A DNA stretch of 45,255 nt. Source: Bacilli bacterium (GTDB taxonomy: Bacteria > Bacillota_I > Bacilli_A > RFN20 > CAG-826). Below are positions 41,572 through 45,255 of the stretch, one piece after another (position 1 is the first letter of the stretch; each line of letters opens with the position of its first letter). The stretch lies in assembly GCA_034116505.1 (NCBI GenBank), contig JAXERM010000012.1:1-45255 (forward strand). The letters run 5' to 3'. Position numbers and translations under genes: made by a program. The notes under the pieces were generated by a model, which saw nothing but the letters and a program-made list of their open reading frames with translations, searched no databases and had not been told where the DNA came from.

Positions 41572-43139
41572 TATATATTAAATAGGATAGAGACATTATT
41601 GTGCCATCAAGCGGTCTTAATATTAAAGATGACGGAGTTTTTTGATAAATCTAAGAATAGTTATGATTTTTTTCTCTTCTTCAGTCCCTTTAAATAAATT
41701 TAAAAGTTTTGTTTATATCAAATAAAAAAATATAAAAATTAAGACAGTGTCAAAAAAATCAACGCAATAATTTAGATTTGAATATCAACCCTCATAAAAT
41801 TTAATTGTAAAGCTTATCAGGGGGAAAATTATGATTAAATACGTTTCAAATCTCGCTTCCAATTCTTCATCACCAAAAATTGATATTTCTTGTAAATTAA
41901 TTAAGATATCAAACACTAGTTATTCTTCTAATACCACTGCACTTAATGCTGGCAATGTCTTGTTTTATCATATTAAATTTAATGGGCTAACATCTAACGA
42001 CAAAATATATCAGACATACTTAACCTTAGTGTTATTATGCCCAACATATAGTTTTTCAATGAAGTTATATTATGTGGATTCTTTAACTACGTTTCCATCA
42101 ATCTAAACCATATCCAAAGTAATGATACACTCATTAACGAAAGTCCATTTAACATCGATGAATTGTTGTTCTTTAAGCAAACATTAGAAGATTTCCAAAG
42201 CGAAACATCATCAGGATGATTAGAAATATCCAGTTATGCTGCTTCAATCGAAATCGCTTTATATTTATTTGGTATTTCCTCTCATGAATATACTAGTGAT
42301 GAATTATTCGAAATGGACCAAGCGTGGCAAAAATATTTCCTTGGCCAAGCATATAACAATTTAAATAATTGCAGCAAAACATTAATCAATCACAACATCG
42401 ATGAAGGAGAGGATTTTATTTCCTTAAATGGAGATGCGACTTCCTATCGCGGAAGAATCCCGTTAAATCCTTCAATGAATTATCAACATTTTGATATTCA
42501 AAAAGATGCATATTTTAAATACGATAGTCTAATCAATCGACACATATATTACATCGATGAATCTTCATCGTTTTATCCGTTACATTACAATTTACCTTTA
42601 ACTAGTTCAGGCACACTCAGTTTATTCTTTAAACTAAATTATACGTGCACTCATTTGAGATACCTGTTTAGTTTTATGATGAGAATGATAATTTATATTT
42701 TGCAGTTTATATCAATCAAAATAATCAATGCTATTATCATAAAGATAATCAGGACATCCTTATAAAGGAGAATATCTCTTTATCAACTTGGAAAAATATA
42801 TATTTAACATATTCGTTAGGATCAGGACAAATCATCATTGATAGACAAACTGTTAACATCACAAATTTAGATTTAAGTAATCTATCATTCTATTTAGGAA
42901 GTAATATCGATAAAACATTATCTTTAAAAGGAGAAATTGAAAGTCTCTTCTTTGCTGAAGATTATAAAGAATATGATCTAGATAGAATCAATAAATATAG
43001 GCCAGTAACAATCGCTTCTTCCTTAGATAATTTCAAAAGAACTACACAAAAAATTATCAATGTTAATGATCGAAGATTTATCACTACATACACATATGAT
43101 TTATCACGTGTTGCTTCTGAAAACATATTAGGTGATGAT

Positions 43140-44645
43140 TTGATTAATTATACATACACTGAATCAAATCAACTCTTTAGTAGGACTATTGATAATGTTG
43201 CTGATCAATTTAGCTATGATGTTTTCGGAAGACTAGCTTCTTATAACCATTTAAATGGCCAACATCTTGAAACATATTCGTATGATAACAACGGCAATAT
43301 TTTATCAATTAATATTGCTGGAGATGAAATATCAACTTATTCATTCACATATGATAATCAGCGTCTAGTTAGTGTCACTAAAAATGGGTCGATAATTAAC
43401 ACGATTGCTTATAATGATGATAATGTTCTTTTTCCTTCATCAATGACGATTAAAGGAGAAAATAAATCATTAATATGGCAAGGACACCGATTAGTGTGCA
43501 TTGGTGATAATATTCTATATCGATATAACTCTGATGGTGTTAGAACTTATAAACACACTGATTTAGAAGAAACAACTTATGGTTTAGAACAAGAGAAGAT
43601 TATTTCATTAACAAAAACTGTTAACAATGTCTCTTATTCCTTTGCTTTTACATATGATATGAACAATTTGTTATCTTCAATCATTTATAAAGATAAATAT
43701 TATTTTTACATTAGAGATATTTTTGGAAATATTCTTGGTATAATAAATGATAACAAGCAATTTATTGTTAAATATACTTATCGTCCTTATGGTCAATTTA
43801 TAAGAACAATAGTAACAACAGATAATGATGAATTGGTTGTTGCTAACCATAATCCATTCTTATATAAAGGATATTATTATGACGAAGAGACTAATTGGTA
43901 TTACGTCACTTCTCGATATTATAATCCTGAAATTATTAGGTGGATATCTCCTGACAGTATTGATTATCTAGATCCCGAAAGCATCAATGGATTGAACTTA
44001 TATGCGTACTGCGAGAATGATCCTATAAATTACGCCGACCCTAGCGGGTGCTTCCCAATTTTGACTGTAATTTTGTGTGGGCTAGCAGTTGCTGGTTTGG
44101 CAACTATGGGTGTTGGAATGGCAACGGATAACAATTTAGTTACAGCTATTGGCTTAACTATGGTATCAATACCAGCATTGGTTTCTGGTAGTTTGGCAGT
44201 TTTTGCAACAACAGGAACTTTGGCCACATGGATTGGTGCAGGAACTATGGTTGCGGGTCTAGGAACGGGGTTGTTTGCGTCTGCAGAATATCAAGAAGCA
44301 TTTACTGGAAATAACTGGATGTCAAGCAGCTTGAGTGAAGACTGGTATAATGGATTAATGATAGTTACAGCAAGTTTGGCAACTTTAGGAACATTTGCAT
44401 CAAGTTTTGCGTATTCATTTAATATTAATTCGATACAAAACATAGGCAAGATTGATAAGTATTATGGTATCAAATTTACTCAAAAAGCTCCTAGCGGTAA
44501 TTTAAGAGTTAAAACATTAGGAATTCATCCGCCACATAATGGGCACCCTATCCATTGGCAATTAAATAATATAAATCCATCTACGGGTGGAATTGGTAAG
44601 AGAATTAGATGGGATTTACTACTAAGAAGATTAATAGGTAAGTAA
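43140..44645 (+). CDS. RHS repeat-associated core domain protein with C-terminal toxin tip (the longest intact ORF of the rhs gene)
   Basis: YD repeats are present (FSYDVFGRL, YSYDNNGNI, FTYDNQRL, YRYNSDGVR, FTYDMNNLL). The RHS core consensus reads YYFYIRDIFGNILGII...YTYRPYGQ...NPFLYKGYYYDEETNWYYVTSRYYNPEIIRWISPDS...NLYAYCENDPINYADPSG. The frame is open from 42672, but the first ATG/GTG/TTG is the TTG at 43140. Confidence 0.85.
   Translation: MINYTYTESNQLFSRTIDNVADQFSYDVFGRLASYNHLNGQHLETYSYDNNGNILSINIAGDEISTYSFTYDNQRLVSVTKNGSIINTIAYNDDNVLFPSSMTIKGENKSLIWQGHRLVCIGDNILYRYNSDGVRTYKHTDLEETTYGLEQEKIISLTKTVNNVSYSFAFTYDMNNLLSSIIYKDKYYFYIRDIFGNILGIINDNKQFIVKYTYRPYGQFIRTIVTTDNDELVVANHNPFLYKGYYYDEETNWYYVTSRYYNPEIIRWISPDSIDYLDPESINGLNLYAYCENDPINYADPSGCFPILTVILCGLAVAGLATMGVGMATDNNLVTAIGLTMVSIPALVSGSLAVFATTGTLATWIGAGTMVAGLGTGLFASAEYQEAFTGNNWMSSSLSEDWYNGLMIVTASLATLGTFASSFAYSFNINSIQNIGKIDKYYGIKFTQKAPSGNLRVKTLGIHPPHNGHPIHWQLNNINPSTGGIGKRIRWDLLLRRLIGK
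43683..43823 (+). repeat. rhs core segment, copy 1 of a dispersed direct repeat shared with the orphan fragment
   Basis: A codon-by-codon hand alignment with 45115-45255 gives about 104/141 identical nucleotides (roughly 74%) with no gaps. Confidence 0.8.
44049..44642 (+). other. Variable C-terminal (toxin) region of the RHS protein, downstream of the DPxxxxDPSG core boundary
   Basis: The 198 aa include about four Gly/Ala-rich hydrophobic helices (44052-44417) flanking AEYQEAFTGNNW. A 75-aa basic His-rich tail follows (44418-44642, ...LGIHPPHNGHPIHWQLNN...KRIRWDLLLRRLIGK). I recognise no catalytic family. Confidence 0.6.
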
Positions 44646-44661
44646 AAAAATGGAGGATTTT

Positions 44662-45024
44662 ATGGAAACTAGTGTAAAAGAAATGTTGAAATATTATTGT
44701 GAATTAGAAATTGAAAAATTTAATAGTAGTTCCATATTCTCTATGTTAAACGAATTGGTTAAATCTCAAGAGTTAAATCTTAAAATTGAATTTGGAAAAG
44801 CTAAAGACGAAAATGACAAAAATTTATATTTGAGTCTTTCAATTTATAATAAAAATGGTCAATTAGTAGAAATCTTTGATGAAGGATTTCTAACTACATA
44901 TACTACATTAGTTTTAATTGATAAAAAAGATAGATGCAAATTTTTGTCTTGGCAAGATGACGAATTTATTGAAGATTTAAACTGGATTATCAAGCAATTA
45001 AATATATTAGCGAAAAATAAATAG
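44662..45024 (+). CDS. Putative cognate immunity protein (small, soluble, acidic)
   Basis: It starts 16 nt after the rhs stop. GGAGG (44652-44656) lies 5 nt before the ATG at 44662. The ORF-track ATG at 44650 overlaps that SD. The 120-aa product has no TM or signal peptide. The assignment rests on its position immediately 3' of a polymorphic toxin tip. Confidence 0.65.
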   Translation: METSVKEMLKYYCELEIEKFNSSSIFSMLNELVKSQELNLKIEFGKAKDENDKNLYLSLSIYNKNGQLVEIFDEGFLTTYTTLVLIDKKDRCKFLSWQDDEFIEDLNWIIKQLNILAKNK

Positions 45025-45255
45025 CAAATTACTTTTACAAGCAAAACTGGCGAGTTTGCCTTTGGACTATCCAACGCAAAGTAGGTGCAATTGTTTAAAT
45101 TGTAATTTGTCGTTATTTATAAGAACAAGAAATATTTTTATATTAAAGATGCATTAAATAATATCCTTGGTATTATTAATAGTGATAAGCAATATATCGT
45201 TAAAAAGTCTTATCGACCTTTTGGTCAATTTATTAAGAATATATTAACTAAGAAT
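45025..45255 (+). pseudogene. Orphan rhs core fragment with no start codon and 5' in-frame stops, continuing beyond the window
   Basis: Frame 1 reads QITFTSKTGEFAFGLSNAK*VQLFKL*FVVIYKNKKYFYIKDALNNILGIINSDKQYIVKKSYRPFGQFIKNILTKN. This parallels the main gene's ...SYSFAFTYDMNNLLSSIIYKDKYYFYIRDIFGNILGIINDNKQFIVKYTYRPYGQFIRTIVTTDN. The frame is open from 45106 to the window end. Confidence 0.75.
45115..45255 (+). repeat. rhs core segment, copy 2 (orphan)
   Basis: See 43683-43823. The orientation is the same and the copy lies 1.43 kb downstream. Confidence 0.8.

Follow-up and report, generated by a model that had tools for sequence, protein, structure and literature searches.

A conserved hydrophobic module precedes exchangeable tails with matching downstream genes in an orphan RHS cassette of a Bacilli bacterium

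Orphan rhs-CT/immunity cassettes, known from Enterobacteria and, among monoderms, from the WapA type of Bacillus, combine a core that ends in DPxG with a variable C-terminal (CT) tip and an adjacent small open reading frame (ORF) for an immunity protein; they occur as 5'-truncated copies with a tandem follow-on fragment that shares a repeat. Here we analyzed a locus that resembles them in all of these respects. It lies on contig JAXERM010000012.1 (assembly GCA_034116505.1) of a low-G+C Bacilli bacterium, a metagenome-assembled genome (MAG); the entire contig of 45,255 bp was investigated and is called the window below. Judged by its arrangement, the layout of this locus is that of an orphan rhs-CT/immunity array. 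It differs from the described cassettes by its Acholeplasma-like Bacilli host, by full-length relatives in which no secretion domain is recognisable, and by a hydrophobic module that is placed between the RHS core and the presumed toxin. Hydrophobic stretches behind an RHS shell have been described in two other settings. Tse5-CT, a fragment of a type VI secretion system (T6SS) Rhs effector of Pseudomonas aeruginosa, is hydrophobic and membrane-inserting; it is released by the RHS aspartyl protease and chaperoned in the shell (PMC10684867). The mosquito protein SGS1 consists of an RHS/YD shell, an aspartic-protease site, about 230 amino acids (aa) of predicted membrane helices and a Tox-SGS domain (PMC9935623; PDB 8fjp). 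We observed that the tip of the Bacilli cassette is bipartite: a constant hydrophobic module is followed by a tail that is exchanged between relatives, and the ORF downstream of the tip is coupled to the tail.

The tip was delimited by searching the protein of ORF 43140..44645 against family models. TIGR03696 (Rhs_assc_core) matched aa 214-303 of this protein with an E value of 5.4e-22 (model positions 1-75 of 76) and PF05593 (RHS_repeat) was matched as well, so that the RHS core comprises nt 43779-44048 with DPSG as its last residues. As the core match ends at DPSG, 44049 is the first codon past the autoproteolysis boundary, and 44049-44642 codes for a cleaved tip of 198 residues. A previous reading of the DNA by a model that saw only the letters and their translations (the sequence-only reading) had placed the tip at the same positions, and the ORF translation, all peptides quoted there and the end of the TIGR03696 match agree with it. 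It had also found the tip unlike the known nuclease, deaminase and ADP-ribosyltransferase families, and our search bears this out, as Pfam and NCBIfam gave no match for the tip at E<=10, with PF14449 and all Ntox/Tox models included. The tip is not a chance ORF, since we found 133 homologues with E values down to 2.5e-118. The nearest relatives belong to Acholeplasma, Izemoplasma and Anaeroplasma and to MAGs of gut or rumen origin.

AlphaFold2 (AF2) was run on the tip with a 75-sequence alignment and returned a predicted local distance difference test (pLDDT) value of 92.5 and a predicted template modelling (pTM) score of 0.86, with a pLDDT of 93-99 over the module stretch. The model places helices at tip residues 4-25, 29-52, 57-86 and 97-123 (H1 to H4), in agreement with the four hydrophobic Gly/Ala-rich helices that had been proposed from the letters. 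Their description as glycine-zipper-like is loosely true: the tip holds one strict small-xxx-small-xxx-small zipper at residues 70-78 and no others. Residues 1-123 lack K, R and H altogether, G, A, S and T together make up 60 of the 123 positions, and the isoelectric point (pI) is 4.05. By the Kyte-Doolittle grand average of hydropathy (GRAVY), H1 (2.15) and H2 (1.72) are clearly membrane-like. A conserved AEYQEAFTGNNW loop lies between module helices and belongs to a hallmark segment in which F76, A77, A79, E80, Q82, N89, Y100 and L103 are invariant and W90 and N101 reach >=90% (alignment A5 of the module). The hallmark reads FASAEYQEAFTGNNW...WYNGL in the window, and distant members that carry PT-HINT, Ntox21 or Ntox24 keep the pattern F-[AG]-[ST]-A-E-x-Q-[EQ]...G-x-N-W...Y-N-x-L. 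A resemblance of the TG-containing segment to the 'pre-toxin TG' module PT-TG, which the sequence-only reading had noted, had to be abandoned, because PF14449 matched neither the tip nor the whole ORF product at E<=10 and the segment lies in a confidently predicted helix-loop-helix (pLDDT 93-99) without Arg.

In 72 of the 100 proteins for which upstream sequence is available the module begins 0-2 residues past [DN]PxG, and most of the others have a variant core ending (D-x-S/T/D-G) at this place. Using a profile of the module only (alignment A5) in a filter-free search of 1.84 billion representative proteins, we obtained 103 matches at E<=1e-3, almost all of them directly behind an RHS core, and the module family is therefore small and lineage-restricted. 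In the searches made, no module was found on trunk types other than RHS. Against the PDB, the module-only profile had no significant match; its best one was chain 7 of 6esb, the hydrophobic N-terminal region of the minor capsid protein VP2 (E 0.29), which is probably compositional. Foldseek of the whole tip against the PDB returned generic helix bundles only (best E 0.22). By position and conservation, the helical block is a pre-toxin module attached to the site of RHS cleavage, with a toxin slot behind it. The stretch had also been noted as richer in G/C than its surroundings, and this is the case: the module has a G+C of 0.415, compared to values of 0.294 for the RHS part and 0.234 for the ORF that follows. 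At codon positions 1, 2 and 3 the module has a G+C of 0.42, 0.545 and 0.276 (vs 0.21), respectively. A foreign origin of this rise was ruled out, as codon positions 1 and 2 account for the excess, with very little of it at position 3, and it thus reflects the amino-acid composition (Gly/Ala/Thr codons).

Behind the module the homologues diverge. Approximately 50 of the 133 match the whole tip, while approximately 31 match residues 1 to ~105-131 only and continue with other tails of ~90-100 aa. Among the representatives found with the module profile, at least 10 unrelated clusters of tails could be distinguished. Some of these are known to Pfam. One protein (P0234) combines the module with PT-HINT and Ntox21 (E 6.7e-27), another (P0215, from Acholeplasma oculi, named type 24 polymorphic toxin by NCBI) combines it with Ntox24 (E 1.2e-7), and two (P0211 and P0214) carry PT-HINT and a short tail. 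The mean pairwise identity is 0.65 for the module and 0.45 for the tail, which has the lower value in 87% of the pairs. With at least 10 unrelated tail clusters behind one module, the C-terminal region is exchangeable between otherwise similar proteins.

Some of the alternative tails and shorter ORFs deserve a separate remark. Tail cluster 2 (P0073, P0077, P0082 and P0088) is an unannotated family of ~100 aa with the motif NW.GWR.MR[SR]H[YF].KHG...Y.N...YTN and has no Pfam match; at two loci (L023 and L024) it is accompanied by its own distinct downstream ORFs and may be another new toxin/immunity pair. For one alternative tail with a 'DGNHR' motif a ParB-like assignment was considered and dropped, since Pfam at E<=1 gave no confirmation. 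Among the short ORFs, P0147 joins the N-terminus of an immunity protein of the HGPHFHPW type (see below) to the C-terminal half of a tail of the window's own family, and P0149 joins a UvrD-like N-terminus to a tail fragment. Together with P0150, these chimeric ORFs look like debris of cassette recombination.

We compared the gene behind the tail with the tail type in 32 genome loci and the window. The HWQLN tail, the family of the window's own tail, was found at 22 loci, and at 19 of these a homologue of the window's next ORF follows. The HGPHFHPW tail was found at nine loci and is followed in all nine by a different family of ORFs of ~85 aa. Three singleton tails each have a unique downstream ORF, and two sub-variants of the HWQLN tail (L011 and L013) have distinct ORFs of their own. 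Within the HWQLN family, the identity of the candidate immunity proteins correlates with tail identity (Spearman 0.64) much better than with module identity (0.18), and ordinary least squares regression gives coefficients of 0.91 for the tail and 0.08 for the module; as the identity pairs are not independent, the contrast between these values is informative and p-values are not. Over the compared loci, the type of the downstream ORF sorts with the tail and not with the module, and an adjacent small ORF co-varies with the presumed toxin.

In the window this ORF starts at 44650 in the ORF listing (124 aa). The true start is probably the ATG at 44662 behind a GGAGG at 44652-44656, in agreement with the 120 aa annotated by NCBI. 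The product is acidic (pI 4.7) and its composition gave no membrane-like segment. It has no Pfam or NCBIfam match, and all of its 31 homologues are unnamed or called 'hypothetical protein'. No membrane protein is encoded beside the cassette. From the co-variation, the product of 44662-45024 is likely to be the immunity protein of the tail. A basic toxin and an acidic soluble immunity protein are the usual pattern for toxin-immunity pairs of nucleases and RNases.

The tail itself comprises the last 75 aa of the tip and is basic and His-bearing, as had been read from the letters (pI 11.1, 12 K/R, 4 His). In the AF2 model of the whole tip, strands were predicted at residues 126-135, 138-146, 152-160, 169-175 and 182-189, and residues 120-198 modelled alone gave five strands and a short C-terminal helix with a pLDDT of 87.5. 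In the tail alignment (A3) G140, H163, Q171 and W188 are invariant, Y138, F143 and H169 are conserved in >=90%, and position 160 is usually His. According to the model, H160 closes strand 3, H163 is located in the hairpin loop, and H169 and Q171 stand two residues apart at the start of strand 4, so that a clustered His/His/Gln site is plausible from the predicted secondary structure. A confident profile or structural match of the tail to a known toxin family was looked for in Pfam, the PDB and BFVD and was not found: Foldseek gave a best E of 0.45 against the PDB, with a TM score below 0.45, and a best E of 0.17 against BFVD; the tail sequence profile had nothing under E 0.5 in the PDB; the window tail matched no family in Pfam and NCBIfam; and a Pfam scan of 29 diverse tail members returned no toxin family. 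Searching for other trunks (LXG, WXG, CdiA) that carry the tail, we found 33 proteins only with the tail profile, all of them fragments or chimeras of the same lineage.

Two relationships of the tail were considered more closely. A kinship with the HGPHFHPW tail, with which it shares an H..PH.H.W look, was rejected (hhalign probability 0.3%). Ntox24 is described as an all-beta domain in which Y, H and H are conserved, and it is predicted to be a metal-independent RNase (PMC3482391). Ntox24 and Ntox21 are similar in size to the window tail and are found in relatives at the same place behind this module, and the Pfam models of Ntox21 and Ntox24 have 71 and 91 positions, so that the small size, which the sequence-only reading had counted against an enzyme, is no argument. 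The resemblance of Ntox24 and the tail, both mostly or entirely beta with conserved Y, H and H, is suggestive; none of the 29 tail members matched Ntox24 (PF15529) or Ntox21 in Pfam at E<=10, and a kinship with Ntox24 was rejected at an hhalign probability of 0.1% against five Ntox24-like tails, a comparison of low power with a small alignment. As a separate observation, several unrelated tail families end rich in Trp or other aromatic residues and are often basic there (RWIWWNLRRM, IHWWYI, NIHIWFM and HFHPWI; P0215, P0219, P0214, P0079 and window residues 186-198). These shared ends may reflect a requirement of the module-toxin arrangement, for example a membrane-interface or packaging signal.

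We regard it as somewhat better than an even bet that the tip is composed of a conserved hydrophobic pre-toxin module, which serves membrane entry, and a fast-evolving, basic and mostly-beta toxin of 75 aa that is neutralised by the product of the next gene. In the full-length protein, the RHS aspartyl-protease core would cut after DPSG and the hydrophobic cleaved fragment would stay inside the RHS shell, as with Tse5 and SGS1. Once a target cell is met, the cytoplasmic membrane would take up the module, which would carry or position the small basic domain on the cytoplasmic side. Using the H163/H169/Q171 cluster, the tail would then attack a target in the cytosol, with a nucleic acid such as RNA as the most likely candidate, and the acidic soluble product of 44662-45024 would block the toxin. 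Membrane insertion, translocation and the biochemical target are the conditional parts of this scheme. A more far-reaching version is possible but rather doubtful: in this version the module would be a self-contained translocation domain that moves a dozen small basic toxins into Acholeplasma-like (where wall-less) or other monoderm targets without a host receptor or a separate translocon, and the tail would be a metal-independent RNase of new fold that acts through H163, H169 and Q171.

Several points weigh against the proposed division of labour. Toxicity, membrane insertion and translocation are predictions, and the AF2 model carries no information on the membrane state. H3 and H4 are of moderate hydrophobicity only (GRAVY 0.65 and 0.54). 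With four spans, a simple hairpin insertion from outside would leave the tail outside, so that an additional step would be required for translocation. No kinship of the tail to known enzymes was detectable, and for this reason the suggested RNase activity draws only on charge, size, the conserved His/Gln residues and the neighbouring toxin types. The more remote module matches (E 1e-9 to 1e-4) lie in hydrophobic segments, and composition may have raised their scores, although the shared AExQE...GxNW...YNxL motif argues against a purely compositional origin. Finally, the window copy is without most of the RHS shell.

This last point leads to the explanation that survives best beside the proposed one, namely that the locus is a decaying RHS relic without a functional toxin, in which at most the immunity gene is under selection. 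We believe this to be rather probable, as the 5' truncation has removed the RHS part up to about residue 1250 of ~2087. By tblastn with full-length homologues, the remnant at 42334..42678 corresponds to residues 1250-1371 of the full-length Acholeplasma oculi homologue, and the frame-3 part from 42834 on matches residues 1429-2085 of a 2087-aa homologue. The window hence retains only the equivalent of residues ~1250-2085 of a full-length RHS protein (the full-length homologues used have 1482-2084 aa), and the N-terminal ~60% are absent. The copy is thus short of a full RHS shell (some 1000 or more aa of repeats) and of an N-terminal trafficking region. What remains is split into two frames by tblastn (42334-42678 in frame 1 and 42834-44618 in frame 3) with a frame change between 42678 and 42834; the stop-to-stop frame of the shell fragment opens at 42672. 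The only listed start of ORF 43140..44645 is an arbitrary TTG, housekeeping genes lie directly 5' (the RHS remains are immediately preceded by an unrelated ORF of 551 aa), and many homologues are short fragments or chimeras such as P0147 and P0149. The tip, however, is intact in frame, is 93% identical to its homologue P0001 and keeps every family-invariant residue. Moreover, orphan CT/immunity cassettes can be reactivated through recombination with a main rhs gene, as in the rhs loci of E. coli and Salmonella. A 152-nt direct repeat of 72% identity flanks the cassette (43665-43816 and 45097-45248, spacing 1432 nt); it is likely to be a substrate for cassette exchange and could support such a return. 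We consider that decay concerns the window copy and not the nature of the encoded domains, and that it can coexist with the proposed bipartite toxin. The window copy is a 5'-truncated, frameshifted orphan cassette that probably cannot itself be deployed, and it probably acts as a recombination reserve and immunity carrier.

The coordinates of all features are compiled in Table 1. The Laminin_G_3 insert of the A. oculi homologue (residues 1342-1475, Pfam), a ConA-like lectin domain whose start overlaps the upstream remnant, could decorate the shell and bind a receptor; the lectin and carbohydrate-binding module (CBM) domains on SGS1 are comparable. In the window the corresponding region is broken by the frame change between 42678 and 42834. 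Another orphan array was observed at L002:303-3415, where an RHS fragment with the HGPHFHPW tail and an 86-aa ORF is followed by a second RHS fragment with a 156-aa ORF; tandem cassettes are therefore common in the Acholeplasma-like lineage. The full-length RHS relatives with the module (L025:4358-10609, L015:5081-10603 and L013:6119-10564; 1482-2084 aa) show neither a start that resembles a signal peptide nor a trafficking domain in Pfam (PAAR, LXG, TcdB/TcaC or similar); Pfam shows RHS repeats and the Laminin_G_3 insert only.

Table 1. Features of the orphan RHS cassette in the window
Feature	Position (nt)	Strand	Basis
Upstream RHS remnant, frame 1	42334..42678	+	tblastn with full-length homologues as queries
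RHS/YD-repeat shell fragment ending in RHS-associated core	42834..44048	+	TIGR03696, PF05593, tblastn
Tip-encoding ORF	43140..44645	+	translation, agrees with the peptides quoted in the sequence-only reading
Conserved four-helix hydrophobic pre-toxin module, tip residues 1-123	44049..44417	+	AF2, composition, profile search
H1	44058-44123	+	AF2
H2	44133-44204	+	AF2
H3	44217-44306	+	AF2
H4	44337-44417	+	AF2
Hallmark segment FASAEYQEAFTGNNWMSSSLSEDWYNGLM, tip residues 76-104	44274..44360	+	end of H3, loop and start of H4; alignment A5
Variable C-terminal tail, tip residues 124-198, presumed toxin; stop 44643-44645	44418..44645	+	AF2, conservation
Conserved His/Gln cluster H160, H163, H169, Q171	44526-44561	+	alignment A3
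Candidate immunity gene, 120 aa, ATG 44662	44662..45024	+	sequence; NCBI hypothetical protein, locus tag SO176_00900
Second orphan RHS fragment, cut by contig end	45097..45255	+	direct repeat, translation, tblastn

A different division of roles would make the whole 198-aa tip a single membrane-depolarising, pore-forming toxin like Tse5-CT, EsxX and the contact-dependent inhibition (CDI) ionophores. The basic beta tail would then be an accessory for gating, lipid binding or orientation, and a cytoplasmic immunity protein would grip the tail and stop insertion from inside the producer. The sequence-only reading had left the choice between a membrane-inserting toxin and a translocation module with a novel mini-toxin. 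In favour of the single toxin, the tip has four hydrophobic helices rich in small residues and one small-xxx-small zipper, the Trp-rich basic tail ends (RWIWWNLRRM, HFHPWI, IHWWYI) could sit at the membrane interface, and for Tse5 it is established that an RHS shell delivers an integral-membrane toxin (PMC10684867). For EsxX it is reported that this glycine-zipper toxin is neutralised in different compartments by distinct immunity families (PMC12744356), which suggests that an immunity protein outside the membrane is compatible with a pore former. However, in CDI ionophores it is the immunity-contacting helices that are polymorphic, and small hydrophobic hairpins serve as immunity proteins (PMC11630599). 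The window cassette shows the reverse, as its helical block is conserved and its tail variable; its hydrophobic part is not the polymorphic one, and its candidate immunity protein is soluble and not membrane-embedded, with no membrane protein encoded beside the cassette. The same block also precedes RNase-type toxins recognised by Pfam and PT-HINT release domains, both the type and the divergence of the immunity protein track the tail, and no Tse5 chain was matched in the PDB by the tip sequence or the module profile at E<=10. We consequently regard a pore-forming tip as unlikely. The second alternative of the sequence-only reading agrees with the exchange of tails, with the Pfam toxin tails and with the tracking of the tail by the ORF, while the first is disfavoured; in addition, the module itself might act on membranes.

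To our knowledge, characterised RHS and Tc proteins package soluble toxins without a module of this kind, and this counts against a reading in which the module is a packaging or holding element of the producer that lines the hydrophobic interior of the shell or anchors in the producer membrane and has no role in target entry. We regard this reading as quite improbable, since a strictly conserved loop of polar and aromatic residues (AExQE..GxNW..YNGL), together with the absence of any basic residue, suggests an interface with a membrane or a partner and not filler, and since packaging would be compatible with a later role at the target membrane, even though in SGS1 the predicted membrane helices behind the protease site run along hydrophobic patches in the interior of the shell (PMC9935623), the module is fused to the RHS core boundary with no other trunk type found in the searches made, and the full-length homologues lack a recognisable secretion domain.

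The preferred reading, with a pre-toxin module for membrane entry and a separate toxin domain, bears on a step that is among the least understood in contact-dependent antagonism, above all in monoderm and wall-less bacteria, namely the passage of a toxin across the cytoplasmic membrane of the target. A short, highly conserved module that is free of basic residues, is fixed at the RHS cleavage site and stands before at least 10 unrelated toxin domains is a compact and testable candidate for this entry step. In wall-less Acholeplasma cells it could be tested by adding the protein from outside. In addition, the analysis defines one new putative toxin/immunity pair, the HWQLN tail with its acidic protein of ~120 aa, and points to several more families of unannotated tails in Bacilli MAGs from gut and rumen. 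If the module merely helped with packaging, or if the tip were a common pore former, the cassette would be a routine addition to the catalogue of polymorphic toxins; if the module were a self-contained translocation device, the interest would be higher.

Comparing the cassette with the known systems, we found the same order of parts in SGS1, where an RHS core boundary is followed by Gly/Ala-rich hydrophobic helices and a small C-terminal domain. With the RHS core included, SGS1 (8fjp) is the best sequence match in the PDB (E 3.5e-10) and the alignment extends into the hydrophobic helices behind the cleavage site. Homology of the helices was nevertheless rejected, because the match was lost without the RHS core and the module hidden Markov model scored -5.5 bits, compared to 7.7 bits for the best of 1000 shuffles. 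As far as sequence comparison can tell, SGS1 is an architectural analogue and not a demonstrable homologue. In Tse5-CT the hydrophobic fragment itself is the toxin, whereas in the window a conserved hydrophobic part stands before tails that are exchangeable and have matching soluble immunity proteins; homology was rejected here too, as neither the tip nor the module had a sequence match to Tse5-CT in the PDB at E<=10. PT-TG is described as a disordered, low-confidence loop of ~15 residues with conserved G, D and R that is found on WXG, LXG and ALF trunks (PMC13483458). Like the module, it stands just before polymorphic-toxin domains and has a TG dipeptide in a conserved loop, but the module consists of four confidently predicted hydrophobic helices on RHS cores and is without Arg.

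The closest functional parallels are the N-terminal transmembrane domains of prePAAR T6SS effectors (Tse6, RhsA; PMC7773334) and the cytoplasm-entry domains of CdiA-CT (PMC11630599), in which a conserved element is combined with exchangeable toxins and is implicated in the crossing of the target cytoplasmic membrane. By analogy, the module would most plausibly work like these elements, although it has no sequence relationship with them. The prePAAR elements are N-terminal to PAAR and outside the shell, and the CdiA-CT elements are soluble and hijack inner-membrane proteins, whereas the module is inside the cleaved RHS cargo and directly N-terminal to the toxin. In its design the cassette is an ordinary orphan RHS polymorphic toxin/immunity type, and judged by our comparisons it contains two parts that have not been described before: the hydrophobic module of the Acholeplasma-like lineage, and a small, mostly-beta putative toxin domain with its matching immunity family.

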